Of a stretch of 64,000 nt of DNA, positions 8,592 through 64,000 are shown in pieces. The DNA lies in assembly GCA_020630195.1 (NCBI GenBank), contig JAHDBV010000008.1, positions 877-64,876 on the forward strand, written 5' to 3'. Position numbers and translations under genes: made by a program. This DNA is from Acidimicrobiales bacterium. GTDB taxonomy: Bacteria > Actinomycetota > Acidimicrobiia > Acidimicrobiales > SZUA-35. The notes beneath the pieces are model-generated. The model saw nothing but the letters and a program-made list of their open reading frames with translations. It searched no databases and was not told where the DNA came from. The stretch's first letter is position 1. Every line of letters starts with the position of its first letter.

Positions 8592-8596
8592 GGGGT

Positions 8597-9061
8597 TCAG
8601 CGTAGCGGGATGCCGTCGGTGTCGCCGTCGGCCCGGGCGCCGTGGATGCGTCGCTCCGCCTCGGTGATCTCGACGTCGTTGATGCTGGCTTCCCGGCGGC
8701 GCATGAGGCCGTGCTCGTCGAACTCCCAGTTCTCGTTGCCGTAGGAACGCCACCAGCGGCCCTCGAGGTCACGGCTCTCGTACTGGAACCGCACGGCGAT
8801 CCGGTCGTCGGTGAACGCCCACAGGTCCTTGCGGAGTGCGTAGTCGGTCTCGCGAGCCCACTTGGCGGCCAGGAAGTCCCGGATCTCGTCGCGGCCACGC
8901 AGGAACGTGTCACGGTTCCGCCACTCGGAGTCGACGGTGTAGGCCATCGCCACCCGCTCCGGATCGCGGGTGTTCCAGGCAGCTTCGGCCGCCAACACCT
9001 TCATGGTCGCCGTCTCACGGGTGAACGGTGGCACGGGTGGCTTGGTCTCGGGGGTCGTCAT
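8597..9061 (-). CDS. DUF1348 / NTF2-like family protein
   Basis: The internal Met of ORF 8597..9124 gives [18 protein letters not shown]...[37 protein letters not shown]...[14 protein letters not shown]. This closely matches the conserved DUF1348 pattern as I remember it. Confidence 0.8.
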
Positions 9062-19503: not shown

Positions 19504-21002
19504 GTGGATGGCTCCAGATGGATCGGGAAACGGGTGCGGATGGCGGCCTCGGCATCGACGGCGAGGTGGTCGGGTCGGCCGCCGGCGAGGACGTCACGCA
19601 CGCGGGCCGCGGCGAGGTCCCAGAGTTCGGGCGAGCCGGCGGCGACCCATTCGTCGACGGAGCGACGGTCGCCGAGGCCCGGGTAGACGTACTCGGACCG
19701 CATGAGCTCGAGGGTCTGCGCCTGGCCGAGGTAGTGACCGTCGCCGGTGACGACGTCCTCGACGATGGCGAGATCGAGATAGCCGGGATCGACCTCGACG
19801 CCGCGCACGCTGCGCAGGATCGCGCCGCACATGTCGTCGTCGATGACGAGGCTCTCGGGGCTCGCCACCATGATCGAGCCGAGCATGCCGACCGAGAGCT
19901 GGACCATGTCGGCCCCGGCCTGGGCCGACAGCGCGACCGTGTAGCCCTTCTCGTAGCCGGCCTGGCTGTCGGCGGTCTTGGCGTCGGTGATGCCCGCCGA
20001 CACGGCGTGGGGCAGGTCGAGATCGCGCAGCAGCTGGGCGGCGGCGGCGCTCGTGACCGCCGCTTCGCCACTGCCGCCGGTCATCGCCCCGCTGCGCAGA
20101 TCGGAGATGAACGGCATGAACGCGTGGATGCAGGGATGGCCAGGCCGGATGGCATCGGCGAGCACGACCCCGGCGAGGATCTCGGCGAGACCCTGGGCCA
20201 ACGATCCGGCGAGCGACGGCGGGCTGGTCGCACCGGCCTGGCCGGCCGAACAGGTCTGGATCACCATGCCGCGCTCGATCGCCCGCTCCATGATCTCGCA
20301 CCCCTCCGGCGAGAAGCGCAGTGGCGGCACCACGTGGACGACGACGGCCATCGAGAACGGTTGGCGGGCGAAGGCTCCCTCCGAGCCGAGGGCGACGTCG
20401 AAGAGGTCGACGACGGGGTCGACGGTGTCGACCGAGGTGAAGCTCACCCCGGTCGGCTTGGAGGTGGCGGCGGTGATGGCGAAGGCCGTGTTGAGGTCGA
20501 GTTCGAGCGGGTCGACGACGTCGCGGGCGACGAGTGTACGGAGCCCGTAGTGGATGTTCGGGCTCGTATCGAGCACCCGCATCATCGACCAGAGGTCACC
20601 GAGCTCGGAGTCCCGGAAGCCGCCGGTCTCGGCGTCGAGCACACGGACCGCTGCGCCGCCCGTGCCGACGTGCACATGGCCACCGCCGACGGTGAGCCCG
20701 CGATCGGCGGTGAATCCGGGCAGGTCGACGCGGGACGGGGCTCGTTCGAGCGCGGCCTCGACGACGGCACGGGGGAACAGGAGTCGACCGTCGTGGCGTT
20801 CGGTGGCGCCGGCGGCGAGCAGGCGGTCCCGGGCGGCCGGGGGAGCGTCGGCCATGCCGATCGTCGCGAGGATGTCGAAGGCGTGGTCGAGGACGGCGTC
20901 TCGGTGCGGATCCGACAGCGGGCGATACGCACCGCCCCTGGGCGGGGCCGTGATCGGCGGCGGCCCGGCCGGTTCGCGACGCCGGCGTCCCGCGCGGCTC
21001 AA
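19500..21002 (-). CDS. MttB-superfamily methyltransferase, non-pyrrolysine member (quaternary-amine/trimethylamine methyltransferase family)
   Basis: 500-aa uninterrupted ORF, apparently with a TTG start. It has the basic N-terminus (SRAGRRRRE...) and overall pattern of the MttB family (…FDILATIGM…VGTGGAAV…SAGQAGATSP…AGADMV…). There is no in-frame TAG. Confidence 0.85.
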   Translation of the reverse strand: MSRAGRRRREPAGPPPITAPPRGGAYRPLSDPHRDAVLDHAFDILATIGMADAPPAARDRLLAAGATERHDGRLLFPRAVVEAALERAPSRVDLPGFTADRGLTVGGGHVHVGTGGAAVRVLDAETGGFRDSELGDLWSMMRVLDTSPNIHYGLRTLVARDVVDPLELDLNTAFAITAATSKPTGVSFTSVDTVDPVVDLFDVALGSEGAFARQPFSMAVVVHVVPPLRFSPEGCEIMERAIERGMVIQTCSAGQAGATSPPSLAGSLAQGLAEILAGVVLADAIRPGHPCIHAFMPFISDLRSGAMTGGSGEAAVTSAAAAQLLRDLDLPHAVSAGITDAKTADSQAGYEKGYTVALSAQAGADMVQLSVGMLGSIMVASPESLVIDDDMCGAILRSVRGVEVDPGYLDLAIVEDVVTGDGHYLGQAQTLELMRSEYVYPGLGDRRSVDEWVAAGSPELWDLAAARVRDVLAGGRPDHLAVDAEAAIRTRFPIHLEPST

Positions 21003-21143: not shown

Positions 21144-22079
21144 TCAGGCGAGGTACGGCGTCGCCGGGTTGATCAGGCCCGGTCGCAGCTCGTATGCCTC
21201 GGTCGGGCCCCACGTGCCGGCGTCGGGGTGGCTGCCCCGGACCTCGTCGATCTCGAGGACGAGCGTCCGGGTCGAGTACTCGTCGGCGGCCGGTGACGCC
21301 TCGACGCGGCCCCGGCCGGTCAGATGCAGGGTGCGACCCGTCGTGGGGTCGAACGTCATGACGCCGAGCCGGTCGTCGAGCAGCAGGTTGCCGAGCGTCT
21401 GGAACATGCCGTTGCCGGTGTAGTCGGGCATCGAGATGGTCCGGTCGTCGACGACCGTGACGAACCCTGGCGGGCCGCCCCGGTGGGTCGGATCGACCCC
21501 GTGGCGTTCGTGGAAGCTCGCGAGGAACACCATGTCGGTCGCGGCGAGCTGATCGCAGTCGTCGGCCGAGAGCCGCTCGTCGCGACGCCCCGGCCGGCCA
21601 GCGGCGCTCGACGGTCGTTCCGGGTCGTGGTCGCGCTTCGCGATGTACTTGTTGCAGAGGCCGAAGTTGCGGTGCATGCGGTAGGTGATGCCGCCGCGGG
21701 CGTCGACCTCGGCCATGCCGAGCGACTTCGCCCTCCGCCGACGCGACGGCTCGAAGTAGAGGACGCCGAGGTGGCCGGTGGCGGCGATCGCCGGGATCAG
21801 CGGGTCTCCGTCGACCCGTGCCGTCGAGATGCCCACCGTCGTCGGGTCGAGCACGGTGAACAGCTCGCCGGCCCGCCCGAAGAACGGGGAGGCCCACGCT
21901 CTGCCGTCGGCGTCGATGGAGGCGCCGACGGAGAAGGTGCGTCCCGACACGAAGCGGACCTCGTTGTCGCTCAGCTCGGGCCGGAACGCCTCGTCGACCA
22001 TGCGATCGAAGGCGACCGTGTCGACCCCGGACTCGGCCTGGATCCGGGCTTCACCCTCGTGGAAGTTCCGCAGCGTCAT
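21144..22079 (-). CDS. pyridoxamine 5'-phosphate oxidase-like FMN-binding split-barrel protein
   Basis: 311-aa ORF. Shows FHEGEARIQAESGV...MVFLASFHERHGVDPTHRGGPPGFV...YTGNGMFQTLGNL, the PNPOx-like pattern. Confidence 0.7.
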   Translation of the reverse strand: MTLRNFHEGEARIQAESGVDTVAFDRMVDEAFRPELSDNEVRFVSGRTFSVGASIDADGRAWASPFFGRAGELFTVLDPTTVGISTARVDGDPLIPAIAATGHLGVLYFEPSRRRRAKSLGMAEVDARGGITYRMHRNFGLCNKYIAKRDHDPERPSSAAGRPGRRDERLSADDCDQLAATDMVFLASFHERHGVDPTHRGGPPGFVTVVDDRTISMPDYTGNGMFQTLGNLLLDDRLGVMTFDPTTGRTLHLTGRGRVEASPAADEYSTRTLVLEIDEVRGSHPDAGTWGPTEAYELRPGLINPATPYLA

Positions 22080-22111: not shown

Positions 22112-23032
22112 TCAGTCGTCGCCCAGCACGACGGCGGCGATCGCGACGTCCTGGGCGGCGATGCCGGTGAGATCGGCGACGGTGCGTTGCCCCGCGGTGG
22201 TCCGACCCCGCGCGGTGCCCGCCAACACGGCGCCGAGTTCGACCACCGCCGCGGTCGGCGGCAGCATCGAGCACTCGCCGTGATCACGACACTGGACCAC
22301 GCTGTCGGCCACGACGAGCTCGGCGGCGGCCAGCAGATCGGGGGAGAGTTCGTGTTTGCCCGGGGCGTCGGCTCCGACCGCCGTGATGTGGGTGCCCGGG
22401 CGGATCATGGCGGCGTCGAGCAGCGGCTCGGTGGCGGCGGTGACGGTGGCGATCACGTCGGCCTCGGCGCAGGCCGAGTCGAGATCGGGGGCGACCGAGG
22501 CATCGTTGCGGGCCGCCACCTCGGCGGCCCGGGAGGCCGAGCGACCCCACACCCGCACCTCGTCGAGGTGGGGGAGGAGGGCACGGTGCCAGCGGATCTG
22601 CTGGTCGGCCTGGATGCCGGTGCCGACCACGAGCAGGCGGGTGGCGTCGGGCCGGGCGAGTGTCCGGGAGGCGACGGCGCCACCGATGCCGGTGCGCACG
22701 TCGGTCAGGGTCATCTCGTCGTGCAGCACCGCCCGCACCTCACCCGTGCGGGCCGACAGCACGATCGAGGCGCCGTTGTTCACGGGCGGACCGGTCGGGT
22801 CGTCGCGATTGCCCGGGAATCCGGTGGCGATCTTCACGACGAACACGTCGTCTCCCCGTCGGTGCCCGATCTTCACGTGGCAGTCACCGCCCACAGCGTC
22901 GAAGACGAGATGCCCCACCGGCGGGAGCTGGACCTCGCCGCGGCTCGCCGCCACGTAGGCGGCCTCGACGGCGGCGGCCGCCCGGTCCGGGTCGAGTCGT
23001 CGGGCCAGCTCGTCCCGGTCGAGCACGATCAC
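22112..23032 (-). CDS. ornithine cyclodeaminase / mu-crystallin family protein
   Basis: 306-aa ORF. Shows ...LTDVRTGIGGAVASRTLA...LLVVGTGIQA (Rossmann)...ITAVGADAPGKHEL. The GTG start overlaps the upstream stop (GTGA). Confidence 0.85.
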   Translation of the reverse strand: MIVLDRDELARRLDPDRAAAAVEAAYVAASRGEVQLPPVGHLVFDAVGGDCHVKIGHRRGDDVFVVKIATGFPGNRDDPTGPPVNNGASIVLSARTGEVRAVLHDEMTLTDVRTGIGGAVASRTLARPDATRLLVVGTGIQADQQIRWHRALLPHLDEVRVWGRSASRAAEVAARNDASVAPDLDSACAEADVIATVTAATEPLLDAAMIRPGTHITAVGADAPGKHELSPDLLAAAELVVADSVVQCRDHGECSMLPPTAAVVELGAVLAGTARGRTTAGQRTVADLTGIAAQDVAIAAVVLGDD

Positions 23033-24171
23033 GAGATCGTTCCCGCGTGGGCCTCGAGGTGGGCGGTCATCGCAGCGAGTCCCTCATCGAGGCCCCGGCG
23101 GCCGTAGCCGAGCCGGAACCGGTCGGTGATCGTCGGGCCGACGTCGGAGCGGTAGATCGACGACGGCAACAGCAGGACCCCGGCCTCCTCGACCAGGCGG
23201 CGACAGAACTCCTCGACACCGTCGGCGCCGAGATACCGGGGGAACCCCATGCAGGAGCCGTCGGGGCGGACCCACTCGAACCGGTCGGCGAAGCGAGCGA
23301 AGAAGGCGTCCCACTTCGGCAGGTTCTCGTCGATGATCCGGTTGTTGCGGGTGATGATCTCGTCCTTGTGCTCGAGGGCGATGATCGCCAGGCGTTCACT
23401 CGGGCCCGAGTTGCAGATCGAGGTGTAGTGCTTGAGCTTCTCCATCCGCGCCAGCAGCTCCCGGTCCTTCGAGGCGATCCAGCCGATGCGCAGCCCCGGC
23501 AGGCCCATCGACTTCGACGTGACACCGAGCGAGAGCCCACGTTCGTAGACATCCGCGACGAACGGCAGATGCTCGGTCCCGGTCGGGCCGAGTCCATGGA
23601 AGATCTCGTCGTGCAGCAGGTGGATGCCGTGGTGGCGGCAGAGCTCGACGAGGGCGTCGTAGCGATCCCTCGGCAGGATCGTGCCGGTCGGGTTGTGGGG
23701 GAAGTTGATCGTGAGGAGCCGGGTCGACGGGCGGATCTCGGCCGCGACGCGATCGATGTCGAGCGACCAGCCGTCGTCGGGGTCGAGTGGCACACCACTC
23801 ACCGAGCCGAGTGCGCCGGGCAACGACTCGTGGCTCTGGTAGTTGGGGGTGACGACGATCGCATGGGCGTCGGGGTCCATGAGCACGGCGTTGGTGGCGA
23901 AGATGCCCTCACTCGCCCCGGCGAAGCACAGGACCTCACCCGGCTCGATGTCGTCGTAGGTGGCGGCGATCGCCTCCCGCAGGTCGGGTGCGCCCCAGGT
24001 CTCGGTGTAGCCGAGCCACATGTGCTCGAAGGCGTGGCGCTGCTCGTCGGTGGCGAGGGCGAGCAGGTCGGCGAGCGACATCGCCTCGGCGTCGGAGGCG
24101 GTGAGGTGGTGCTCGGCGGCGAACTCCCACCGCGCGAAGTGGGTCTCGAGACGGAACTCGGGGAGCTGCAT
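23029..24171 (-). CDS. PLP-dependent aminotransferase, class I/II fold
   Basis: 380-aa ORF. Shows ...NFPHNPTG... and ...SKSMGLPGLRIGW (PLP lysine region). Confidence 0.85.
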   Translation of the reverse strand: MQLPEFRLETHFARWEFAAEHHLTASDAEAMSLADLLALATDEQRHAFEHMWLGYTETWGAPDLREAIAATYDDIEPGEVLCFAGASEGIFATNAVLMDPDAHAIVVTPNYQSHESLPGALGSVSGVPLDPDDGWSLDIDRVAAEIRPSTRLLTINFPHNPTGTILPRDRYDALVELCRHHGIHLLHDEIFHGLGPTGTEHLPFVADVYERGLSLGVTSKSMGLPGLRIGWIASKDRELLARMEKLKHYTSICNSGPSERLAIIALEHKDEIITRNNRIIDENLPKWDAFFARFADRFEWVRPDGSCMGFPRYLGADGVEEFCRRLVEEAGVLLLPSSIYRSDVGPTITDRFRLGYGRRGLDEGLAAMTAHLEAHAGTIS

Positions 24172-35035: not shown

Positions 35036-36012
35036 CCCCGCCCATCCCGCTCACCCTGATCGGGGGCTACCTCGGGGCCGGCAAGACGACGCTCGTCAAC
35101 AGCCTGCTCGCCGGTGGCCACGGCCTCCGGCTCGCGGTGCTCGTGAACGACTTCGGCGAGGTCGACATCGACGGGCGACTCGTCGTCGCCCACGACGGTG
35201 AGACCTACACGCTCGCCAACGGCTGCATCTGCTGCAGCTTCGGTGACGACCTGGGCGAGACGCTGCGGGGCATCGCCCGGGCCGACGATCCGCCCGATGC
35301 GGTGATCGTCGAGGCCAGTGGTGTCGCGGACGCCCGCCGACTGGCCGCGTCGACGGGGGAGTGGTTCGGCTTCGAGCACCACGCCACCCTCGTGCTCGCC
35401 GATGCCGAGACGGTGCGGGCCCGGTCCGAGGACCCCTACGTCGCCGATCTCGTACGGAGCCAGCTCGCCGGCGCCGATCTCGTCGTGCTCAACAAGGTCG
35501 ATCTCGTGGCCGAGTCGGACGTCGACGAGCTGCTCGCCTGGTGCCGCTCCATCGGGGTCGACGGACCGATCCTGCCGACGACGAACGGCCGTGTCCCGAT
35601 CGAGGTCCTCACGTCGGTGCCGGCCGGGCGGTCGCCGGTCGATCGGGTCCACGACGACCACCACGTCCCGTTCTCGTCCGTCGTGGTGCGCCCCACCGGC
35701 CCGTGGCGTCGAACGCAGCTCGAGGCCGCGCTCGCCTCGTTGCCACCGGAGGTCGTCCGGGTGAAGGGATTCGTCGATCTCGACGACGACGGCGTCGGCC
35801 GACGGGTCGTGGTGCAGCTCGCCAGCCGCCGCACCCGGATCACCGACGCACCCGACCGGTCGGCGGCCGGGGGCGATGCGGACGACGAGCCCGTCCTCGT
35901 CGTGATCGCCGTTGGTGACCTCGATCCAGCGGCGCTCGCCGCGGCGCTTCCGGACTCGACGATCGCTCGACGCCCCGGTCGTCCCGACTCGTTCCTGTCC
36001 GCGGAGGTCTGA
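35032..36012 (+). CDS. COG0523 / CobW-family G3E P-loop GTPase (metallochaperone family)
   Basis: GTG at 35032 overlaps the amidohydrolase stop (GTGA). Carries the Walker A motif GGYLGAGKTTLVN, the GCICCS metal-binding CxCC motif, LNKVDL, and a His-containing linker (VHDDHHV). Confidence 0.85.
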   Translation: MTPPIPLTLIGGYLGAGKTTLVNSLLAGGHGLRLAVLVNDFGEVDIDGRLVVAHDGETYTLANGCICCSFGDDLGETLRGIARADDPPDAVIVEASGVADARRLAASTGEWFGFEHHATLVLADAETVRARSEDPYVADLVRSQLAGADLVVLNKVDLVAESDVDELLAWCRSIGVDGPILPTTNGRVPIEVLTSVPAGRSPVDRVHDDHHVPFSSVVVRPTGPWRRTQLEAALASLPPEVVRVKGFVDLDDDGVGRRVVVQLASRRTRITDAPDRSAAGGDADDEPVLVVIAVGDLDPAALAAALPDSTIARRPGRPDSFLSAEV

Positions 36013-45976: not shown

Positions 45977-47047
45977 TCAGGGGATGAGCACGAACTTGCC
46001 GACGTGGGCCTTCTCCAGGAACTCCTGCTGCGCCGCGACGATGTCGACGAGCGGGAAGGTCTTGGCCACCACGGGGCGGATCTCGCCCCGCTCGATGTAG
46101 CCCACCAGGTTCGGGAAGACCGGTTCGTCCCATGCCGTCGAGCCGATGAGGCGCAGATCGCGCAGGTACATCGTGCGCATGTCGAGTTCGACGATCGGTC
46201 CACCGATCGCGCCGGACGAGACATAGCGCCCGCCTCGGCGCAGCGAGCCGAGCACGGCCGCGAAGGCGGGCCCGGCCACGTTGTCCACCGCCACGGTGAA
46301 CGTGTCGGTCGGGATCGGCTCGCCACGGGCGATCACGTCGTCGGCGCCGAGCGCCCGCACGGCTGCCGCCTTCGAGGCCGAGGCCACGGCGGTGACCCGG
46401 GCGCCGCGGCGTTTCGCCAACTGCACCGTCGCCGACCCGACACCACCGGATGCTCCCGTCACGAGCACGTGGTCGGCCCCGTCGACCCCGGCCCGGTGGA
46501 GCATGTTCTCCGAGGTCCCGTAGGCGCAGGGGATCGAACCGAGCTCGGCGTCGGTCCAGTCGCAGTCGACCGGGAACACCTCCGAGGCGGCGACCGTGAC
46601 GTACTCGGCGAACGCGCCGTCGAAGTCGGACGCCATCCACACGTGGTCGTAGGTGTCGTAGCCGAGGTGGCGGATGCTGCACCGCACGATCACCCGGCGC
46701 CCGACGATCGACGGGTCGACGTCGGTGGCCACGGCGTCGACGACACCGCAGCAGTCGGTGCCCTGGATCAGCGGCCACGGCGTCGGTGCGCTCCAGCCGC
46801 CGTCCTCACGGTGAACGTCGTCGTCGGCGGCGTCGGCGTCGGAGCTGGTGTCGTCGGTCGAGGCCGTGACGTCGTCGGAGTACCACCCGAGGCGGGTGTT
46901 GATCTCGGTGTTGTTGATGCCGGCCGCGAGCACGCGGATCCGGGCCTCGCCCGGTGCGGGCCGGGGAATCGGCACCTGCTGGATCTCGAGGCGATCGAAG
47001 CCGCCGTTGCCGGTGGTGACGACGGCGGTCATGGTCTCGGCGCTCAT
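45977..47047 (-). CDS. medium-chain (zinc-type) alcohol dehydrogenase / quinone oxidoreductase family
   Basis: ATG at 47047 in ORF 45977..47260. Shows a GroES-like N-terminus and the nucleotide motif VLVTGASGGVGS. Confidence 0.85.
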   Translation of the reverse strand: MSAETMTAVVTTGNGGFDRLEIQQVPIPRPAPGEARIRVLAAGINNTEINTRLGWYSDDVTASTDDTSSDADAADDDVHREDGGWSAPTPWPLIQGTDCCGVVDAVATDVDPSIVGRRVIVRCSIRHLGYDTYDHVWMASDFDGAFAEYVTVAASEVFPVDCDWTDAELGSIPCAYGTSENMLHRAGVDGADHVLVTGASGGVGSATVQLAKRRGARVTAVASASKAAAVRALGADDVIARGEPIPTDTFTVAVDNVAGPAFAAVLGSLRRGGRYVSSGAIGGPIVELDMRTMYLRDLRLIGSTAWDEPVFPNLVGYIERGEIRPVVAKTFPLVDIVAAQQEFLEKAHVGKFVLIP

Positions 47048-47114
47048 GGCGACCACGCTGGCGCTCGCCGACGCCGGACACAACACCTCGGTGTCGCCGG
47101 AGCCCGCCGATTCC

Positions 47115-47132
47115 GGTGACCGGTTGGTCACC
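47115..47132. promoter_or_regulatory. perfect 7-bp inverted repeat upstream of the lar operon
   Basis: GGTGACC-GGTT-GGTCACC lies 38 nt upstream of the larC2 GTG start, inside the 122-nt divergent intergenic region. Confidence 0.3.
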
Positions 47133-47169
47133 ACCCGGCCCGGGCCCGCGGTGAGTACCGTTCGGCGGC

Positions 47170-47613
47170 GTGGCCGTGCACCAGCTCGAGACCAACGTCG
47201 ACGACATGGACCCGCGCCTGTGGCCCGGGGTGCTCGACGCGTTGCTGGCGGCCGGCGCACTCGACGCCTGGCTGGTCCCGATCACGATGAAGAAGGGCCG
47301 TCCGGCCTTCACCCTCTGTGCCCTGGTCGACGACGCCCGACTCGACGCCGTCGCCGAGGCGGTGTTCGCCGAGACGACCACGATCGGTCTGCGGCATCAC
47401 GAGGTGGCCCGGCGGGTGCTTCGGCGCGAACCCGGCGCCGTCACCGTCGGGGGTGAGTCGATCTCGACCAAGACGTCGTCGCTCGACACCGGCCGCTCCC
47501 ACACGAGCGTCGAGTGGGACGACGTCCGGGCCGCCGCCGATCGGCTCGGCCTGTCGGCTCGCGACGTGCTCCGGGCGGCCGAGGCGGCCGCCACCCCGGG
47601 GGCCGGCCGATGA
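47170..47613 (+). CDS. larC2: LarC C-terminal half (LarC2) of the nickel-pincer cofactor nickel insertase
   Basis: 147-aa ORF with a GTG start. It begins VAVHQLETNVDDMDPRLWPGVLDALLAAGALDAW...MKKGRP..., which matches the C-terminal domain of DUF111/LarC. It ends with an ATGA overlap into larE. Confidence 0.8.
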   Translation: MAVHQLETNVDDMDPRLWPGVLDALLAAGALDAWLVPITMKKGRPAFTLCALVDDARLDAVAEAVFAETTTIGLRHHEVARRVLRREPGAVTVGGESISTKTSSLDTGRSHTSVEWDDVRAAADRLGLSARDVLRAAEAAATPGAGR

Positions 47614-48461
47614 GCGCCACCGCCGATCTCACCGCCCTCGAGAGCTGGTTCGCCGCGGCCGGTCCGGTCGCCGTCGCCTGCAGCGGCGGGGTCGACAGCC
47701 TGCTGCTCGCCACCGTCGCCCATCGGGTCGAACCGACCACGCGGATCGTGCACACCGTCACCGCGGCGGTCCCGGCCGACGCCACGGCGAGGGTCCGGGC
47801 TCGAGCCGGCGAGGCCGGCTGGCGTCTCGAACTCGTGCGATCCAGCGAGTTCGACGACGAGCGTTACCTCTCGAATCCGACGGACCGGTGCTACCACTGC
47901 AAGACGCACCTCTACGACGCCATCGACGGACTCGTCGCGGCCGGCGCCGTCCGGGGTGCGACCGTGGTGAGCGGCGCCAACCTCGACGATCTCGGTGAAT
48001 ACCGCCCGGGCCTCGTGGCCGCCGAGGAACACGACGTGCGCCACCCCTACGTCGAGCTGGGCATCACCAAGGCCCGCCTTCGGGCCGTCGCCCGGCTCCT
48101 CGGATCCGATGACGCCGAACTCCCGGCCTCGCCGTGCCTCGCCAGCCGCCTCTACACCGGGACCCGGGTGACCGAGGAGCGCCTCCGTGCCGTCGAGGCC
48201 GGCGAAGCGGTCATCCGGTCCGCCGGCATGCCCGTCGTGCGGTGCCGGATCCGCGGGGACGAAGCACTGGTCGAGGTCCCGAGCGACGATCGGCATCGGA
48301 TCGACGACGAACTCCTCGCCGCCGTCGCCGAGGCCATGCGGGCGGCCGAGCCCACCCTGCGGTCGATCACGCTCGACGACGCGGCCTATCGGCCGGGTCG
48401 GGCGTTCGTCGGTGCGACGACGGCGCCGATCCCCGTCACACTCGGCCGGAGTCGGGGCTGA
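47610..48461 (+). CDS. larE: LarE, ATP-dependent sulfur transferase for the nickel-pincer cofactor (PP-loop ATP pyrophosphatase family)
   Basis: ATG at 47610 in ORF 47514..48461. Shows the PP-loop ACSGGVDS and the Cys motifs RCYHCK and SPCLASR. Confidence 0.9.
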   Translation: MSATADLTALESWFAAAGPVAVACSGGVDSLLLATVAHRVEPTTRIVHTVTAAVPADATARVRARAGEAGWRLELVRSSEFDDERYLSNPTDRCYHCKTHLYDAIDGLVAAGAVRGATVVSGANLDDLGEYRPGLVAAEEHDVRHPYVELGITKARLRAVARLLGSDDAELPASPCLASRLYTGTRVTEERLRAVEAGEAVIRSAGMPVVRCRIRGDEALVEVPSDDRHRIDDELLAAVAEAMRAAEPTLRSITLDDAAYRPGRAFVGATTAPIPVTLGRSRG

Positions 48462-49111
48462 TGCACGTTCCCGACCTCGACCGGGCCGACCGGATCGGCA
48501 TGCCCGAAGCGGTGCTCTGCGAACCGAAGACGGACGAGCAGCTCCGCGTGGTGCTCACCGACCTCGTCGCCGCCGGTCGGCCGACCCTCTGCACCCGTCT
48601 CCCGGCCGAGCGGTTCGCCGGTCTTTCTGCCGATCTCACGGCCGTCATGACCCACGACCCCGCCTCGTCCACGGCCGTGCTCCACGGCGGCCTGCCGGCA
48701 CGGCCGGGGCGCGTCGCCGTCGTCGCCGCGGGCACGTCCGACCACGGCGTGGCCGCCGAAGCCGCCGCGACCCTCCGCTTCTCGGGCGTCGAGGCCGAGC
48801 TCATCGTCGACGTCGGTGTCGCCGCACTGTGGCGCCTCGAGGCCCGCCTCGAGGAGATCCGGGCCGCGGATGTCGTGATCGTGGTGGCCGGGATGGACGC
48901 CGCACTCGTGTCCGTCATGGGTGGTCTCGTCGCCTCACCCGTGATCGCCGTGCCGACCTCGGTCGGCTACGGCGTCGCCACGGACGGCACCTCCGCCCTG
49001 CACAGTTCGCTCGCGAGCTGCGCCCAGGGCGTGGCCGTGATGAACATCGACAACGGCTTCGGCGGTGCGTGCGCGGCCCTGCGCATCCTCGGTCTCGCCC
49101 ATCGTGGCTGA
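48461..49111 (+). CDS. larB: LarB, nicotinic acid adenine dinucleotide carboxylase/hydrolase (AIR-carboxylase-like)
   Basis: ATG at 48461 shares one nt with the larE stop (TGATG). Shows GMPEAVLCEPKT...VAVVAAGTSDHGVAAEAA...VVAGMDAALVSVMGGL...VIAVPTSVGYG. Confidence 0.9.
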   Translation: MHVPDLDRADRIGMPEAVLCEPKTDEQLRVVLTDLVAAGRPTLCTRLPAERFAGLSADLTAVMTHDPASSTAVLHGGLPARPGRVAVVAAGTSDHGVAAEAAATLRFSGVEAELIVDVGVAALWRLEARLEEIRAADVVIVVAGMDAALVSVMGGLVASPVIAVPTSVGYGVATDGTSALHSSLASCAQGVAVMNIDNGFGGACAALRILGLAHRG

Positions 49112-49832
49112 CCCCGACACCCCCACCATCGTCTGGCTCGACGTGTCGACCGGTGTCGCCGGCGACCTCCTGCTCGGGGCCCTCGTCGACGCCGGCGTGC
49201 CGATCGAGGTCCCCGCCGAGGCCGTCGCCCCCCTCGGTCTCGGCATCGGGTTCCGGCGGGAGTCGGTCCAGCGGGCGGGTCTCGCCGCCACCCGTGTGCA
49301 CGTCGACGCGCCCGACAGCCGCACCCACCGGCACCTGCCGGAGATCCGGTCGTTGCTCTCGGACCTCGACGAGGCCGTCGCCGGGGTCGCACTCGACGTG
49401 TTCGAACGACTCGCGGCGGCCGAGGCGTTCGTGCACGGCACCACGATCGACGAGGTCCACTTCCACGAGGTCGGTGCGCTCGACGCCATCGCCGACATCG
49501 TCGGGGCCGTCGCCGCCTGGCGGCACCTCGGTGCCCCCACCGTGGTGGCGAGCCCCATCGGCGTCGGTCGGGGCCGGGCCCGTGCCGCGCACGGCTCGCT
49601 CCCGGTTCCGGTGCCGGCCGTGCTGGCACTCACCCGCGACGTCGCGCCCATCGAGGCGGGCCCCCTGCCGTTCGAGGCGGCGACGCCGACAGGTGTGGCC
49701 CTCGTGTGCACACTCGCCGAACGGTTCGAGCCCATCCCGGCGATGACCCCGATCTCGGTGGGGGTCGGCGCCGGCCAGCGTGATCCCGACGGAGTGCCGA
49801 ACGTGGTGCGGGCGGTGCTGGGGCGGGCCTGA
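49104..49832 (+). CDS. larC1: LarC N-terminal half (LarC1) of the nickel-pincer cofactor nickel insertase
   Basis: GTG at 49104 (8-nt overlap with larB) in ORF 49065..49832. Shows IVWLDVSTGVAGDLLLGALVDAGVP...FHEVGALDAIADIVG...GAGQRDPDGVPNVVRAVLG, the N-terminal DUF111 domain. It stops exactly at the LarC1/LarC2 boundary. Confidence 0.85.
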   Translation: MADPDTPTIVWLDVSTGVAGDLLLGALVDAGVPIEVPAEAVAPLGLGIGFRRESVQRAGLAATRVHVDAPDSRTHRHLPEIRSLLSDLDEAVAGVALDVFERLAAAEAFVHGTTIDEVHFHEVGALDAIADIVGAVAAWRHLGAPTVVASPIGVGRGRARAAHGSLPVPVPAVLALTRDVAPIEAGPLPFEAATPTGVALVCTLAERFEPIPAMTPISVGVGAGQRDPDGVPNVVRAVLGRA

Positions 49833-49839
49833 GAGGCCC
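49825..49839. terminator. short hairpin between convergent larC1 and response-regulator genes
   Basis: GGGCCT-GAG-AGGCCC spans the larC1 stop codon. Only 10 nt separate the two convergent stops. Confidence 0.3.
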
Positions 49840-49842
49840 CGG

Positions 49843-50520
49843 TCAGTCGAGTCGGTGCCGGGTGGCGAGCACCGCCGCGCTCGTCCGGTCGGTGAGGCCG
49901 AGTTGGCGCAGGATCGACGACACGTGGTTCTTGACGGTGCCGGCGCTGAGGTGGAGCTCGGTGGCGATGTCCGGATTCGACGCGCCGGTGGCCAGGAGCC
50001 GCAGCACGTCGCGCTCGCGGGGTGTGAGTTCGTCGATGGCTCGCTGCACGTCCGGGTCGATCCGGTCGGCGTCACCCGGCCCGATCATCGTCACGATGCG
50101 GGTGGCGACGTCGGGGGCGAGCTGCACGAGCCCGTTGGCGGCCGCCGTCACGGCGTCGGCGAGCTCGTCGGCCGAGATGTCCTTCGTCAGGTAGCCCGAC
50201 GCACCGGCGGCCAACGCTTCGGTGATCAGGTCGCTCTCGACGAACGTCGTGAGGATGAGCACCCGGGTCCCCGGGTGCGACCGCTTGATCCGCCGGGTCG
50301 CCTCGAGGCCGTCGAGGTGGGGCATCTTGATGTCCATGAGCATCACGTCGGGTTGGTGCTCGTCGACGAGCACCAGCGCGTCGCGTCCGTCGGCACCGGT
50401 GGCGACGACCTCGATGTGCTCGGCGACCCCCGCGAGTGCCGCGAGGCCGTCGCGGATCATCCACCGGTCCTCGACGATGACGATGCGGATCGGCCCGCCG
50501 GCGGTGGTCTCGGCGTTCAT
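49843..50520 (-). CDS. two-component response regulator, NarL/FixJ (LuxR-type HTH) family
   Basis: ATG at 50520 in ORF 49843..51285. The receiver domain shows IVIVEDRWMIRDG...DVMLMDIKMP. The C-terminal LuxR HTH shows LTPRERDVLRLLATGASNPDIATELHLSAGTVKNHV. Confidence 0.9.
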   Translation of the reverse strand: MNAETTAGGPIRIVIVEDRWMIRDGLAALAGVAEHIEVVATGADGRDALVLVDEHQPDVMLMDIKMPHLDGLEATRRIKRSHPGTRVLILTTFVESDLITEALAAGASGYLTKDISADELADAVTAAANGLVQLAPDVATRIVTMIGPGDADRIDPDVQRAIDELTPRERDVLRLLATGASNPDIATELHLSAGTVKNHVSSILRQLGLTDRTSAAVLATRHRLD

Positions 50521-58701: not shown

Positions 58702-60138
58702 TCAGACGATCTGGATGCTGTGGGACACGTTCTTGACGACCGTGTAGTGGGCGAGGCCCTCGGCACCGCCCTCACGGCCGTAGCCGCTCGACTTCACGCC
58801 GCCGAACGGGGTCTCGGGCAGCGACGCCTCGAGGGTGTTGATCGAGAGGTTCCCGGCCTCGACGCCGTCGACCATGCGGTCGACGTAGTCGGCCCGGTTC
58901 GTGAAGCCGTAGGCGGCGAGCCCGTAGGGCACCCCGTTGGCCTTCTCGATGGCCTCGTCGAGGGAGGCGACCGGGTTGACGATGGCGAGGGGCCCGAAGG
59001 GCTCGGTCTGCATGACCGCGGCCGTGTCGGGGACCTCGGCGAGCACGGTGGGTTCGAAGAAGTACCCGGGACGGTCGATGCGGTTGCCGCCGGTCACGAC
59101 GGCGGCGCCGGCCGAGCGGGCGTCGGCGACGAGGTGCTCCATGGCGGCGATGCGTCGGTCGTTGGCGAGCGGCCCCATCTCGACGCCGGGCTCGGTCCCG
59201 TCGCCGACCACCGTCTCGGCGGCCCGAGCGGTGAACACCTGGAGGAACCGCTCGTAGATCGACTCGTGCACGAAGAAGCGGGTGGGGGAGGTGCAGACCT
59301 GGCCGGCGTTGCGCATCTTGCGGATGGCCGAGCTCACCGCGGCGGCCTCGACGTCGGTGTCCTCGCAGACGATCACCGGGGCGTGGCCACCGAGCTCCAT
59401 GAGCACGGGCGTCATGTGCTCCGACGCCATGCCGGTGAGGTGGCGGCCGACGTTCGTGGAACCCGTGAACGCCACGAGGTTGATGCGGTCGTCGGGGATC
59501 AGGTGGGCCGAGATGTCGGACGGGACACCCGACACGAGGTTCAACACCCCGGGCGGCAGGCCGACGTCGACGAAGGCCTGCACGATGTGGCGGGCGCCGG
59601 CCGGGGTCTCCTCGGCCGCCTTCAGGATGATCGAGCATCCCGAGGCGAGGGCACCGGCCACCTTGCGGGCCGGTTGGCTCATGGGGAAGTTCCACGGCGA
59701 GAACGCGGCGACGGGGCCGATCGGCTGGTGGTGCACCACGTAGGACACCCCCGGGGCGGACGGGATCACCCGGCCGTAGGTGCGGACCGCTTCACCGGCG
59801 TCCCACTCGAAGAACTCACAACCCCGGATCACCTCGAGCTCCGCCTGACGGAGCGGCTTGCCGTGCTCGGCGGTGATGTCGGCGGCGATCTCGTCGCGGC
59901 GGTCCCGCAGCAGGGCGGCGGCGTCACGGATCAGGTCGGCACGATCACGCGGCGAGGTCCGACGCCAGACGGCGAACCCGTCGGTCGCCGCCGCCAGTGC
60001 GTCGTCGAGATCGTCGGCCGTGGCCACGGGTACCCGGCCGATCTCGGCCTCCGTGGCCGGGTTCACGACGGGCAGTGTCTCGGCGGTGGTGCGCCACTCG
60101 CCGGCGATGTGGAGCGCGAGGTCGGGATAGTCGTGCAT
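58702..60138 (-). CDS. NAD(P)-dependent aldehyde dehydrogenase (semialdehyde dehydrogenase type)
   Basis: ATG at 60138 in ORF 58702..60528. Shows FSPWNFP, FTGSTNVG, ELGGHAP, NAGQVCTSPTR (catalytic Cys) and EPFGP. Confidence 0.9.
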   Translation of the reverse strand: MHDYPDLALHIAGEWRTTAETLPVVNPATEAEIGRVPVATADDLDDALAAATDGFAVWRRTSPRDRADLIRDAAALLRDRRDEIAADITAEHGKPLRQAELEVIRGCEFFEWDAGEAVRTYGRVIPSAPGVSYVVHHQPIGPVAAFSPWNFPMSQPARKVAGALASGCSIILKAAEETPAGARHIVQAFVDVGLPPGVLNLVSGVPSDISAHLIPDDRINLVAFTGSTNVGRHLTGMASEHMTPVLMELGGHAPVIVCEDTDVEAAAVSSAIRKMRNAGQVCTSPTRFFVHESIYERFLQVFTARAAETVVGDGTEPGVEMGPLANDRRIAAMEHLVADARSAGAAVVTGGNRIDRPGYFFEPTVLAEVPDTAAVMQTEPFGPLAIVNPVASLDEAIEKANGVPYGLAAYGFTNRADYVDRMVDGVEAGNLSINTLEASLPETPFGGVKSSGYGREGGAEGLAHYTVVKNVSHSIQIV

Positions 60139-60983
60139 CAGAATCGTGTCCGGATCGACCACAGGTCGGGGAAGGCGGGCTGGAAGAGGGTGGTGGCGAG
60201 GTAGCTGGCGCCGTCGGAGCCGCCGGTGCCGGGCTTCGTGCCGATCGTGCGGCGCACCATCATCACGTGTCGGTAGCGCCACTCCTGGAGGCCCTCGTCG
60301 AGATCGGTGAGCGTCTCGCAGAGGTTGGCGAACGCCTCGTCGGCGTAGTGCTCGACGATCGCGTCCTGGAGGCCGGGGTGTTCCGCGATCGGCTCGCGCA
60401 CGTCTCGTTCGAGGACCTCGGCGGGCACCGCGACGCCCTGGCGGGACCAGTGGCGGACCACGGCGTCCCACAGCGTCGGGGCCTCGTGGCGGGCGGTGAT
60501 GCGGGTGGCCTGGGCGTCGTCGAACCACTCGGCCAGCACCCGGTTCTTGATGCCGAGGAGTGATTCGAGCTCCCGGAACTGGACCGACTGGAACCCCGAC
60601 GCGTTCGCGAGGAACGAGCGGAAGCTCGCGAACTCGGCCGGGGTCATCGTCTCGAGCACGTCGATCTGGCCGACGACCGTCTTCAGGATCTTCAGCACCC
60701 GCTTCAGATGGTGGCGGGCCGCCGCCACCTCGTCGCGGTCGAGCAGGGCCACGGTGTGGTCGAGCTCGTGCAGGATCTGCTTGAACCAGAGTTCGTAGAC
60801 CTGGTGGATGATGATGAACAGCGTCTCGTCGTGTTCGGGCAGGCCGGTGTCCGGGTCGACCGAGCGGTGCTTCTGGAGCGACAGCAGGGCGTCGATCTCG
60901 AGGTAGGAGCCATACGTCATGCCGTCGGCGGCGTCGCGGGGCACGGCGGCGGCCGGCGTGGGGTCGGTCGGGTCGGTCGTCAT
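60138..60983 (-). CDS. kynA: tryptophan 2,3-dioxygenase
   Basis: ATG at 60983 in ORF 60138..61382. Shows YGSYLEIDALLSLQ...HDETLFIIIHQVYELWFKQILHEL...SGFQSVQFRELE...RYRHVMMVRRTIG...GTGGS. The stop shares one nt with the ALDH start. Confidence 0.9.
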   Translation of the reverse strand: MTTDPTDPTPAAAVPRDAADGMTYGSYLEIDALLSLQKHRSVDPDTGLPEHDETLFIIIHQVYELWFKQILHELDHTVALLDRDEVAAARHHLKRVLKILKTVVGQIDVLETMTPAEFASFRSFLANASGFQSVQFRELESLLGIKNRVLAEWFDDAQATRITARHEAPTLWDAVVRHWSRQGVAVPAEVLERDVREPIAEHPGLQDAIVEHYADEAFANLCETLTDLDEGLQEWRYRHVMMVRRTIGTKPGTGGSDGASYLATTLFQPAFPDLWSIRTRF

Positions 60984-62332
60984 GAGATCGAGAGGGCCTC
61001 GGGGTCGGCGAGCGGGTCGAGGGCGGGCAGGGGCGGCAACGCCCGGACGGCGGTGTCGATGTCGAAGGTCGGATCGGCGAGCGACGTGGTGATGAGCTCG
61101 GCCTGTCGACGGGCCCGTTCGAGGGCGTCGGCGTACGGCATGGTCGAGAACATGACCATGTTGTAACGAGGGCTGAGATGGCCGGGATGACGACGTTCGA
61201 GCTCGAGCGCCAGCGCCCGCTTGGCGAGATGATCGGGGTCGATCACCCCGCTGCGCATCTCCAGGTAGTTGCCGAGGGCCATCTCGGCGATGGCGTCGGC
61301 GTCGGGCTTGCGTTCGGTCTCGTAGGCGGCGAACGCCGCGGCCGGATCGTCGGGCCGGGTGGCGAGGTGGCGGTCGAGACACCGGACCGATTCGAGGGCC
61401 GCGTTCATGCCCTGCCCGTGGAAGGGCACGATCGCGTGGGCGGCGTCGCCGACGAGCACGGCCCGGCCGTCGTGGTGCCAGCCGTCGGCCCGGAGGGTGC
61501 CGAGCCGTCCGGTCGGGTTCTCGCCGAACTCGGCGACGAGGTCGGGCACGAACGGGACGAATTCGGCGAAGTGCTCGTCGAAGAACCGGGCGACGGCGGT
61601 GGGGTCGGCGTCGAGGTGTTCGAAGGTGGTCGACGGTGCGAACAGGGTCACCGTGAAGTCGCCCTCGGGGTTGGCGAGCGCGATGAGCATGAACTCACCC
61701 CGGGGCCAGATGTGGAGCGCGTTCGGGTCGAGCTGGTGGGTGCCGTCCACTCCGGGCGGCAGCGTGAGTTCCTTGTAGTCGTGATCGAGCCAGTCGGTGG
61801 TGAACGAACACGAGCCGGCGTCGCCCATCGAGCGGCGCACCCGGGAGCCCGCACCGTCGGCGCCGACGACGATGTCGAACGGTTCGGTCCGGCCGTCGGT
61901 GAAGTGCAGGGTCGAGGTGTCGAGATCGACCCGGTCGAGCCGGACCTCGAACTGGATGTCGACCCGTCCGGTGGCCTCGGCGGCGTCGAGCAGGATCGCG
62001 TTGAGGTCGGTCCTCGACACCGAATGGATGACTTCGTGTGGCCGGCTGCCGTAGGCCTGGAGGTCGGGCGTCGGGTCACCGACGGCATGCACCATCCGGC
62101 CCCGCATGGGGATCGTGATCGCGTCGACGGCGTCGATCACCCCGGCATCGACGAGCGGCACGATGCCCCGGGTCGCGAGGGCGAGGTTGATGGACCGACC
62201 CGCGTCGATGTCGACCCGACGCAGGTCCGGGCGGCTCTCGAACACGGTGACGTCGTGGCCGCGGCGGGCGAGGAGGAGTGCGAGCAGCGCCCCGGCCTGG
62301 CCGGCGCCGATGATCGTGATCCGCGGGCTCAT
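60980..62332 (-). CDS. kmo: kynurenine 3-monooxygenase (FAD-dependent)
   Basis: 450-aa ORF. Shows ITIIGAGQAGALLA, ...GADGAGSRVR..., ...LVGDAAHAIVPFHGQGMN.... ATGA overlap with kynA. Confidence 0.9.
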   Translation of the reverse strand: MSPRITIIGAGQAGALLALLLARRGHDVTVFESRPDLRRVDIDAGRSINLALATRGIVPLVDAGVIDAVDAITIPMRGRMVHAVGDPTPDLQAYGSRPHEVIHSVSRTDLNAILLDAAEATGRVDIQFEVRLDRVDLDTSTLHFTDGRTEPFDIVVGADGAGSRVRRSMGDAGSCSFTTDWLDHDYKELTLPPGVDGTHQLDPNALHIWPRGEFMLIALANPEGDFTVTLFAPSTTFEHLDADPTAVARFFDEHFAEFVPFVPDLVAEFGENPTGRLGTLRADGWHHDGRAVLVGDAAHAIVPFHGQGMNAALESVRCLDRHLATRPDDPAAAFAAYETERKPDADAIAEMALGNYLEMRSGVIDPDHLAKRALALELERRHPGHLSPRYNMVMFSTMPYADALERARRQAELITTSLADPTFDIDTAVRALPPLPALDPLADPEALSIS

Positions 62333-63594
62333 GCGACGATCTCGTCGAGGATGTCGACGAAGCGCTCGATGTCGGCGAACGAGTTGTAGAGCGGCACCGG
62401 GGCGGCCCGGATCACATCGGGCTCGCGCCAGTCGCAGAGGACGTGGCGGGCGGCCAGCTCGTCGAAGACCCGGCGGCCGTCACCGGCGACCACCTGCAGG
62501 GCGTACTGACAGCCGCGGTCGGCCAGGGTGGGCGGGGCGAGGTTGACGACTCGTCCGTCGAGGCGTTCGGCGAGGAGTCGGTCGAAGAAGACGATCTGAC
62601 GCTCCGACTTCGCCCGCAGCGCCCGCAGGCCTCCGGCGGCGTCGATCACGTCGAGTGAGGCTCGCAGCACGGCGATCGGCAGGATCGGCGCGTTGGACAG
62701 CTGCCACGACTCCACACTCGGGATCGCGTCGAACTCGGTCGCCATCTCGAAGCGGGTGGCGGGGTCGGTGCCCCACCAGCCGTGCAGTTTCGGGAGGTCG
62801 GGGTCGGCGACGTGGCGTTCGTGCACGTAGGCACCGGCGACACCACCGGGGCCGGAGTTGAGGTATTTGTAGGAGCACCACGCGGCGAAGTCGACGTCCC
62901 AGTCGTGCAGGGCGAGGGGAACGTTGCCGATCGCGTGGGCGAGGTCGAACCCGACCGTGGCGCCGACGGCGTGGCCGGCGGCGGTGATGTCGGCCATCGG
63001 CATCACCTGGCCGGTGTAGTACTGGACCCCGGGGAGGAACACGAGGGCGAGCTCGTCGCCGAGCCGGTCGATGGCGGCGACGATGTCGTCGCGGCGGAGG
63101 GTGTCCTCACCCTCACGTGGTGCGAGGACCTCGAGGCACTCGGCAGGGTCGAGCCCGCGTTGGCGGATCTGCGACTCGGCGACGAAGTGGTCGGAGGGGA
63201 AGGCGTGGTCCTCGATCAGGATCTTCCGGCGGCGCCCGTCGGGCCGGTAGAAGCTGATGAGCAGCAGGTGCAGGTTGACGGTGAGCCCGTTCATGGCCAC
63301 CACCTCGGCCGATCGGGCACCGACGAGGCGGGCGAGCTGGTCGGTGACGAGCTCGTGGTAGTCCTTCCAGGCGAGCTCGCCGGTGAAGTGGCCTTCGACC
63401 CCGAGGGTCTGCCACCGGTCGAACTCGATGCCGACGTGGGTCCGCGCGGCGCGGGGGAGGGCGCCGAGGGAGTTCCCGACGAGATAGATGCCCTCGGGGA
63501 GCTCGAACTCGTCACGGAACCCGGCGAGCGGGTCGGCGGCATCGAGCTCGGCGGCGGTCGCCGTGGCGGGGTCGGGGAGGCCGTCGGTGCTCAC
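62329..63594 (-). CDS. kynU: kynureninase (PLP-dependent)
   Basis: 421-aa ORF with a GTG start. Shows FDLAHAIGNVPL..., WCSYKYLNSGPGG (PLP Lys). 4-nt overlaps on both sides. Confidence 0.9.
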   Translation of the reverse strand: MSTDGLPDPATATAAELDAADPLAGFRDEFELPEGIYLVGNSLGALPRAARTHVGIEFDRWQTLGVEGHFTGELAWKDYHELVTDQLARLVGARSAEVVAMNGLTVNLHLLLISFYRPDGRRRKILIEDHAFPSDHFVAESQIRQRGLDPAECLEVLAPREGEDTLRRDDIVAAIDRLGDELALVFLPGVQYYTGQVMPMADITAAGHAVGATVGFDLAHAIGNVPLALHDWDVDFAAWCSYKYLNSGPGGVAGAYVHERHVADPDLPKLHGWWGTDPATRFEMATEFDAIPSVESWQLSNAPILPIAVLRASLDVIDAAGGLRALRAKSERQIVFFDRLLAERLDGRVVNLAPPTLADRGCQYALQVVAGDGRRVFDELAARHVLCDWREPDVIRAAPVPLYNSFADIERFVDILDEIVA

Positions 63595-64000
63595 GAGAAC
63601 GTGCCCTTGCCCTTGTGGACCACACCGCAGTTCGGGCAGGTGCGGGCCTCGAGGTCGGCGTGGTAGGCGGCGAACAGCGGGGGTAGGTCCTCGTCGATCG
63701 CCTGGACCTGCACCTCGACCCGGTGGACCCGGTGGGCGCAGTTCTCACAGACCCACTCGAACCCGTCGAGTTCGCCGGGGTCCCGCTGGTACTCGACGAC
63801 GAGTCCGATCGAGTCGGGATCGGGCCGTTGGGGTGAGTGCCGGACGTGGGGCGGCAGGAGGAAGATCTCGCCTTCACGGATCGGGAGGTCGTAGGGCTCG
63901 GTGCCGTCGCCGTCCCAGATCACGAGGTTCATGTCGCCCCGGATCTGGAAGAAGAACTCCTCGCGGGGATCGTCGTGGAAGTCGTTCCGTTCGTTCCCGC
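63591..64000 (-). CDS. nbaC: 3-hydroxyanthranilate 3,4-dioxygenase; 5' end lies beyond the window end
   Basis: The ORF-track fragment 63591..63932 shows EIFLLPPHVRHSPQR plus the C-terminal CENCAH...CPNCG rubredoxin-like site. My reading upstream of the listed Met continues in frame (...NERNDFHDDPREEFFFQIRGDM...) to the window edge. The true start is therefore outside the window. Confidence 0.85.
   Translation of the reverse strand, partial: GNERNDFHDDPREEFFFQIRGDMNLVIWDGDGTEPYDLPIREGEIFLLPPHVRHSPQRPDPDSIGLVVEYQRDPGELDGFEWVCENCAHRVHRVEVQVQAIDEDLPPLFAAYHADLEARTCPNCGVVHKGKGTFS

Follow-up and report, generated by a model that had tools for sequence, protein, structure and literature searches.

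LarC is, to our knowledge, the sole known biological cyclometallase. It inserts nickel into the mononucleotide of pyridinium-3,5-bisthiocarboxylic acid (P2TMN) in a reaction which depends on cytidine triphosphate (CTP), and it is organized as a hexameric LarC2 core with LarC1 trimers. In a cryo-EM study from 2026, the sites for CTP, intermediate and nickel were located at least 25 Å apart, and the covalent linker between LarC1 and LarC2 was found to be critical (PMC13510736). The two domains are known to be interrupted in Lactiplantibacillus plantarum, where larC2 directly follows larC1 and frameshifting yields the full-length protein (PMC13510736). Here, we describe the lar genes in a 64-kb stretch of contig JAHDBV010000008.1 from an Acidimicrobiales bacterium (the whole stretch is called the window in the following). 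In this locus LarC is encoded by two separate genes, which stand at the two ends of a gene cluster in the order larC2-larE-larB-larC1 and whose products probably act together as one enzyme in two polypeptides.

The lar operon of the window

The window has a G+C content of about 70%, and its closest named relatives in a search of GTDB species representatives are metagenome-assembled genomes (MAGs) of Acidimicrobiales. The four genes larC2-larE-larB-larC1 occupy positions 47170-49832, all on the forward strand (Table 1). For family assignment we applied Pfam and NCBIfam profiles with the curated NCBIfam cut-offs. All four identities given in the original prediction, which had been made from the sequence alone, lie above these cut-offs: larC2 reaches 130 bits with NF052512 (LarC2, cut-off 50), larE 235 bits with TIGR00268 (LarE, cut-off 150), larB 241 bits with NF033503 (LarB, cut-off 175; profile positions 2-207 of 209) and larC1 185 bits with TIGR00299 (LarC1, cut-off 90). 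The Pfam family PF01969 (LarC, 375 positions) is divided between the two outer open reading frames (ORFs), of which larC1 covers positions 2-234 (E=5e-74) and larC2 positions 245-374 (E=3e-39).

Each stop codon within the cluster overlaps the following start codon. The larC2 stop and the larE start share 4 nt (ATGA), the larE stop and the larB start share 1 nt (TGATG), and larC1, which begins with GTG, shares 8 nt with the larB stop (GTGGCTGA). The ORFs are intact and do not contain internal stops. For larC2, the GTG at 47170 was taken as start codon, while public gene calls begin at a second GTG, 47176, and give 145 aa. An upstream extension is blocked by a TGA in the same frame at 47152. Thus, larC1 and larC2 are separate ORFs in reversed order, with a stop after larC1 and an in-frame stop before larC2. 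The coordinates and the three junctions agree with the predicted permuted, non-adjacent halves and with the predicted chain of stop/start overlaps. A fusion by frameshifting was also rightly called impossible, as larC2 is the upstream gene and is separated from larC1 by about 1.5 kb.

The G+C content at third codon positions (GC3) of larC2 and larC1 is 0.90-0.91, like that of the neighbouring genes, which argues against recent transfer or decay. By tblastn, neither a second copy of any lar gene nor a second PF01969 match was found within the 64-kb window. In the region 46800-50100 all Rfam families remained far below their gathering scores, and neither a sigma-70-like promoter nor an intrinsic terminator was detected in the lar region.

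Table 1. Genes and upstream gap of the lar region (positions in the window).
Feature	Position	Strand	Basis
Upstream gap, presumed lar promoter region (by position alone)	47048..47169		divergent, from medium-chain dehydrogenase/reductase (MDR/ADH_zinc) gene (-) to larC2, 122 bp
larC2, stand-alone LarC C-terminal (CTP-binding/CMPylating) domain, 147 aa	47170..47613	+	PF01969, NF052512, 12bi_D and 6bwo alignments
larE, ATP-dependent sulfur insertase, CXXC-C ([4Fe-4S]) type, 283 aa	47610..48461	+	TIGR00268, motifs
larB, nicotinic acid adenine dinucleotide (NaAD) carboxylase/hydrolase, 216 aa	48461..49111	+	NF033503, PF00731
larC1, stand-alone LarC N-terminal (nickel-binding/nickel-inserting) domain, 242 aa	49104..49832	+	PF01969, TIGR00299, alignment to Moorella thermoacetica LarC

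Position of the cut and conserved residues

The cryo-EM chain 12bi_D of Moorella thermoacetica LarC (LarC_Mt) was used as reference for the cut. Native residue numbers are the chain index minus 18, an offset verified with the histidines named in PMC13510736. LarC1 of the window aligns to residues 21-254 of this chain (native 3-236, E=1.5e-43), and the protein ends one residue further on, at about 237. LarC2 aligns to residues 269-408 (E=9e-20) and also matches 6bwo, the LarC2 chain from an L. plantarum crystal (E=8e-12). Its residue 6 corresponds to native residue 251 of LarC_Mt, which places the start of the protein at about 246. The flexible interdomain linker of LarC_Mt comprises the 13 residues 236-248 (PMC13510736), and with LarC1 ending at about 237 and LarC2 starting at about 246 the cut lies within it. 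Judged from these alignments, the fission point of the window LarC is exactly the linker, of which nearly nothing is kept; the split at the domain boundary, as originally proposed, can thereby be placed more precisely. The other stand-alone proteins are cut in like manner: LarC1 proteins extend a median of 3 residues beyond the last conserved Gly, and LarC2 proteins have 1-22 residues ahead of the first conserved position.

The catalytic and nickel-site residues of LarC1 and the conserved motifs of LarC2 are kept on the two sides of the cut. LarC1 of the window holds H77, E107, H111, H119, H121 and H163, which represent the His cluster (H72, H108, H116, H118 and H160 in LarC_Mt) and the catalytic E104. 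The equivalents of E104, H108, H116, H118, E119, D124, H160 and P166 are invariant in all stand-alone LarC1 proteins (33/33), and the equivalent of H72 is His in 32 of the 33. Among about 100 stand-alone LarC2 proteins, the residues N9, D11, D12, D14, R16, K41, K42, G43, R44 and P45 are invariant or conserved to at least 99%. The NxDDxDPR and MKKGRPA motifs of the presumed CTP-binding domain, common to the M. thermoacetica and L. plantarum LarC2 structures, are invariant or nearly so in these stand-alone proteins and as conserved as in fused LarC.

Some positions distinguish split from fused proteins. The His at the H72 position, nearly constant in the split proteins, is present in only 30 of 214 fused LarC1 domains and is mostly replaced by Thr or Ser in fused actinobacterial LarCs. 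The Trp of the EWDD motif in LarC2 (W116) occurs in 90% of the split versus 18% of the fused proteins. At the H70 position of LarC1, split proteins mostly carry Val or Leu.

Recurrence of the arrangement in relatives

The larC2-larE-larB stretch is identical in two independent Logan assemblies (L001, L002). All four genes occur in the same order in a relative which is about 77% identical (L003-L006, contigs of NCBI MAGs), and junction overlaps similar to those of the window were found in L003 and L175. In total, the order larC2-larE-larB-larC1 was observed in five lineages, with 53-77% LarC2 identity to the window. Since the stretch is identical in independent assemblies and the same order is present in relatives, the gene order is confirmed as real, and this genome shares the arrangement with others. 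The source is an assembly from an uncultured organism, and frame breaks resembling sequencing errors do occur in two fused-type loci of long-read MAGs (L037, L038, see below), which would suit an artefact of assembly or binning, or a cluster of decaying pseudogenes. Such an explanation is extremely improbable in view of the two independent read sets, the same four-gene order in several unrelated assemblies, the intact ORFs without a single internal stop and the precise junction overlaps. The original prediction had named absence from all relatives together with signs of decay as evidence that would speak against it; instead, the order recurs, the residues are invariant and the ORFs are intact.

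The layouts among the split loci were counted as distinct lineages. Besides the five lineages with larC2-larE-larB-larC1 (window, L003-6, L025, L091, L175), there are three with larE-larB-larC1 and no larC2 within 8-10 kb (L093, L174, L176), six with an orphan larC2 (L086/87, L088, L089/90, L095, L096, L101) and one in which larC2 and larC1 are adjacent in this order with a 4-nt overlap (L092). The order larC1 then larC2 was found in none of the split loci examined, which excludes a fusion by frameshifting in them. In the MAG GCA_039028435.1, larE-larB-larC1 (L093) and larC2 (L089) are carried by two separate contigs. Whether the permuted split is conserved had been raised with the original prediction, and it is kept in these five lineages as one of several split layouts.

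Two of these loci show further neighbours. In L086 and L087 (6973-8444) the orphan larC2, remote from all other lar genes, is located about 200 bp downstream of a co-directional gene for a metal transporter of the ZIP family (PF02535). In L092 (9558-11703) the larC2-larC1 pair is directly followed by an ADH_zinc (MDR) gene which overlaps larC1, and neither larE nor larB was found within 10 kb of the pair.

Frequency of split and fused LarC

The frequency of the split was estimated from the best 80 loci per search among the matches listed, so the fractions are rough. In GTDB species representatives, 76 of these loci are fused, 2 are split (both larC2-larE-larB-larC1) and 2, from long-read MAGs, are frame-broken. 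In metagenomes, 69 of the 80 are fused, 4 are clear stand-alone larC2 genes, 6 are located at contig ends and 1 is unclear. An exhaustive HMMER search gave a mixture of fused and split or stand-alone proteins. The top 120 matches of a word-indexed protein search were nearly all short LarC2 proteins, and this search therefore overstates the frequency of the split. Split LarC is thus a minority form among the relatives, in line with the earlier statement that fused LarC is usual.

The frame-broken loci L037 (about 5963-6001) and L038 (about 5939-6001) contain a fused-type actinobacterial larC in which the LarC1 and LarC2 frames are offset by +1. This could be a sequencing error or a recoding like that of L. 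plantarum. Unusual architectures were also seen in single proteins. A set of three (P0246, P0348, P0291) includes a 596-aa protein consisting of LarC1 and three tandem LarC2-like repeats, a 647-aa protein with a near-complete LarB fused ahead of LarC (P0348) and a 624-aa protein with a short LarB-like C-terminal stretch alone ahead of LarC (P0291). Three further proteins (P0321, P0368, P0359) were considered as LarC2 fused to another domain and rejected, being truncated fused LarCs with unassigned tails.

In Brachybacterium timonense (L041) a fused larC is followed, about 2 kb downstream, by a second LarC2-like segment (8496-8882) which is 47% identical to LarC2 of the window. Duplicated segments of this kind in other actinobacteria, and the fact that 64 kb of the genome are at hand, leave room for the idea that a normal full-length larC elsewhere does the job and that the split genes are accessory or redundant copies which drift. 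We regard this as quite unlikely for the window: it holds no second PF01969 or other lar match, GC3 is of the coding type (0.90-0.91), the catalytic residues are invariant across stand-alone proteins, and the arrangement has been kept down to 53-77% identity.

Origin of the split

LarE is 57-64% identical to that of the window in split loci and in a few fused ones (L007 from Ilumatobacteraceae, L125 and L129), compared with at most 41% in other actinobacteria. LarB of the same three fused loci is 59-64% identical. These nearest fused loci have the order larE-larB-larC, of which the order in the window is a cyclic rotation with the break inside larC. It may have arisen by a tandem duplication of the operon and subsequent loss of the outer parts, or the larC2 segment may have been relocated.

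In a neighbour-joining tree of 278 LarC2 domains, the window sequence belongs to a clade of 86 stand-alone sequences with zero fused ones, and the sister group consists almost wholly of fused proteins, including L007, L125 and L103. The split-specific residues (H72 position, W116 of LarC2) may be taken as a hint of common descent, and a single origin of the split seems plausible from these data. Three observations weigh against it. The exact 86-member clade was recovered in 8 of 100 bootstraps (the fused-free clade holding the window had a median of 54 members), which lends a single origin little support. The LarC1 tree does not show one stand-alone clade but two neighbouring stand-alone groups. 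Finally, the fused LarC P0243 has a LarC2 part which is 63% identical to that of the window and as close as many stand-alone ones. For these three reasons, we rejected a single origin as an established fact.

A probable LarC enzyme in two polypeptides

We assume, with a probability of roughly 70%, that LarC of the window is a two-polypeptide enzyme whose halves act in trans. This assumption is made because larC1 and larC2 are members of one operon with apparent translational coupling, because the catalytic residues of LarC1 and the motifs of LarC2 are unchanged and because both halves are retained even where they are unlinked. In the proposed pathway, LarB would carboxylate and hydrolyse NaAD, and P2TMN would result from the addition of two sulfurs by LarE of the [4Fe-4S] type. 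Free LarC2, a putative hexamer judging from its homologues, would then CMPylate P2TMN with CTP. Free LarC1 would receive the CMPylated intermediate and insert nickel by means of its His cluster and the catalytic Glu. The two proteins may form a non-covalent complex, or the intermediate may be handed over from one to the other.

The original prediction had offered two possibilities, a two-subunit LarC or an independent role of LarC2. Sequence alone cannot separate them, but the operon coupling and the invariant catalytic residues seem to favour the two-subunit enzyme. Several points weigh against it. The activity of the two halves in trans is itself deduced from their sequences. In LarC_Mt, deletion, shortening, stiffening or replacement of the linker reduces the activity to below 10% (PMC13510736), so that LarC could be expected to suffer without its covalent tether. 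Many larC2 genes of the group are orphans located far from other lar genes, which also fits an independent LarC2 role. In addition, a full-length larC elsewhere in the genome, outside the 64 kb, is possible.

The main rival to a two-polypeptide LarC is a functional uncoupling of the halves. LarC1 alone would insert nickel, for example into a dinucleotide precursor without CMP activation, which would lead to an NPAD-like cofactor, and LarC2 would have another nucleotidyl-transfer role. This is suggested by the orphan larC2 genes, which in at least six lineages are located at a distance from all lar genes, and by the three lineages with larE-larB-larC1 but no nearby larC2; against this, larC2 is located inside the lar operon in five lineages and overlaps larE in the window, L003 and L175, and a MAG with an orphan larC2 also retains larE-larB-larC1. 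Also against uncoupling, the LarC2 motifs are conserved to the same degree as in fused LarC, and the ordinary LarB equivalog model matches LarB from end to end. On the chemical side, uncoupling would fit with P2TAD, an analogue carrying AMP which mimics the LarC intermediate (PMC13510736). Ornithine cyclodeaminases (OCDs) which use NPAD, a nickel-pincer cofactor with an adenine dinucleotide, exist (PMC13524815) and an OCD-family gene is present in the window, but it is 25 kb away and its nearest solved structures are ordinary mu-crystallin enzymes of the NAD(P) type. Taken together, uncoupling of the halves appears unlikely.

With regard to how a two-polypeptide LarC might work, it is conceivable, and we put it forward tentatively, that in this actinobacterial group LarC2 is a free CTP:P2TMN cytidylyltransferase from which the CMPylated intermediate is released, while a separate cyclometallase, LarC1, inserts nickel. 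With two such free-standing enzymes, the linker would be mechanistically dispensable and each half-reaction would be open to study by itself. As larC2 is frequently an orphan, LarC2 could then also have a second, lar-independent role.

LarE type and potential users of the cofactor

The translation of larE contains an SGGVDS P-loop (SGGxDS) and the motifs CYHC and SPCLASR, which together form a CXXC...C triad. This triad characterizes the [4Fe-4S]-type LarE known from Thermotoga and is carried by the majority of LarE homologues (PMC9283937), so LarE of the window is ordinary in this respect. On the basis of its motifs it is assigned to the [4Fe-4S] catalytic type of Thermotoga LarE, as had been proposed from its three Cys.

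For users of the cofactor, about 58 ORFs were scanned, which account for the long coding ORFs in the 64 kb, and one further ORF was read directly; the single gap in the scan holds an aldehyde dehydrogenase. Among the scanned ORFs of the window, neither LarA (PF09861) nor an aldo-keto reductase (AKR, PF00248) was found. The original prediction of no LarA in the 64 kb thus holds. Its further view that the consumer is unknown is in need of an update. Enzymes other than LarA have been known since 2025-26 to use nickel-pincer cofactors, namely NphT of the AKR type and ornithine cyclodeaminases which depend on NPAD (PMC13524815), and the window contains an OCD gene which the original prediction did not mention.

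The OCD/mu-crystallin gene (22112-23032 on the reverse strand, PF02423, E=3e-52) is located 25 kb from the lar genes. It belongs to a gene run with a class I/II aminotransferase gene and a PNPOx-like gene (23029-24171 and 21144-22079, both on the reverse strand). Its nearest solved structures are an archaeal alanine dehydrogenase and mu-crystallin enzymes, which use ordinary NAD(P). With these structures and the distance, nothing ties the gene to lar, and its product may use either NAD(P) or NPAD. The MDR/ADH_zinc gene which adjoins larC2 (45977-47047, reverse strand) was also considered as cofactor user. It was rejected, since tblastn finds the MDR of the window in L003-6 alone and the linkage is not conserved. 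The protein keeps a normal GxGxxG-type motif.

Other genes of the window

A CobW/HypB/UreG-type (COG0523-like) GTPase with a CobW_C domain, a putative metallochaperone, is encoded at about 35050-36012 on the forward strand, about 11 kb upstream of the lar operon. The kynurenine genes mentioned in the original prediction are present at 60138-63932 on the reverse strand. They encode tryptophan 2,3-dioxygenase (TDO), a FAD enzyme like kynurenine 3-monooxygenase (KMO), kynureninase and 3-hydroxyanthranilate 3,4-dioxygenase (3-HAO), the last of which is cut by the window end region. Together with an aldehyde dehydrogenase gene they form a run (58702-63932, reverse strand) for the tryptophan-to-quinolinate/NAD route. 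The connection to the lar genes, a weak side note of the original prediction, did not find support, as no link between the two gene groups was found.

The region 1-45000 of the window is rich in catabolic genes, among them three PhyH dioxygenases, two CoA-transferase III, two P450s, three Amidohydro_3, several Rieske oxygenases and luciferase-like monooxygenases. An MTTB-family methyltransferase gene adjoins a DAO-GCV_T (dimethylglycine-oxidase-like) gene at 17020-21002. In the relative L003, a portion of these genes (FA_hydroxylase, Pantoate_transf, PhyH, P450, 4HBT and Rieske) is likewise located upstream of the lar operon.

Significance and comparison with known systems

NCBIfam has separate models for LarC1 and LarC2, and the NCBI name is 'nickel insertion protein', so the two domains are already recognized as separable. 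In the searchable literature, outside of which several key papers lie, we found no account of non-adjacent or reordered LarC halves; the frameshift case of L. plantarum alone is described. A conserved LarC without tether bears on the linker model, since either the halves assemble without it or the CMPylated intermediate travels between proteins. The conflict with the linker mutagenesis is what makes the split LarC useful, as it represents a natural test of the need for covalent joining. It also offers ready-made, naturally soluble half-enzymes with which CMPylation could be dissected from nickel-carbon bond formation. Split genomes may be misjudged by genome mining which is anchored on full-length LarC or requires LarB, LarC and LarE to lie within a fixed distance of each other, and in annotation LarC should be counted as complete when LarC1 and LarC2 are both present as stand-alone proteins. 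The relevance of these findings is moderate to good for specialists of the nickel-pincer cofactor and modest elsewhere.

In the biosynthesis of the molybdenum cofactor, nucleotide-activating and metal-inserting modules are fused in some lineages, as in Cnx1 and gephyrin, and separate in others, as in MogA and MoeA. The separate bacterial MogA and MoeA, compared with the fused plant Cnx1, resemble the window LarC in logic alone, as folds and chemistry are unrelated. The analogy to Cnx1 was drawn by the authors of the LarC study themselves (PMC13510736).

Closer likeness is found among the lar systems. The Ilumatobacteraceae-type cluster (L007, L125, L129) has the same gene set and equally tight packing as the window, but LarC is encoded there by one gene at the 3' end. 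L. plantarum has in common with the window that the LarC coding sequence is broken at the same domain boundary and that LarC2 can be recognized as an ORF of its own. In the window, however, larC2 is located upstream with larE and larB in between, which makes a fusion product impossible. The full-length LarC of M. thermoacetica (cryo-EM structures 12bi-12bl), a CTP-dependent cyclometallase, shares both domains, the same motifs and the LarC1 His cluster with the catalytic Glu; LarC2 of the window aligns to it over its whole length, and both systems have LarB and LarE as operon partners. The window differs from it in that LarC consists of two polypeptides encoded by non-adjacent genes, and the 13-residue linker is absent as a tether.

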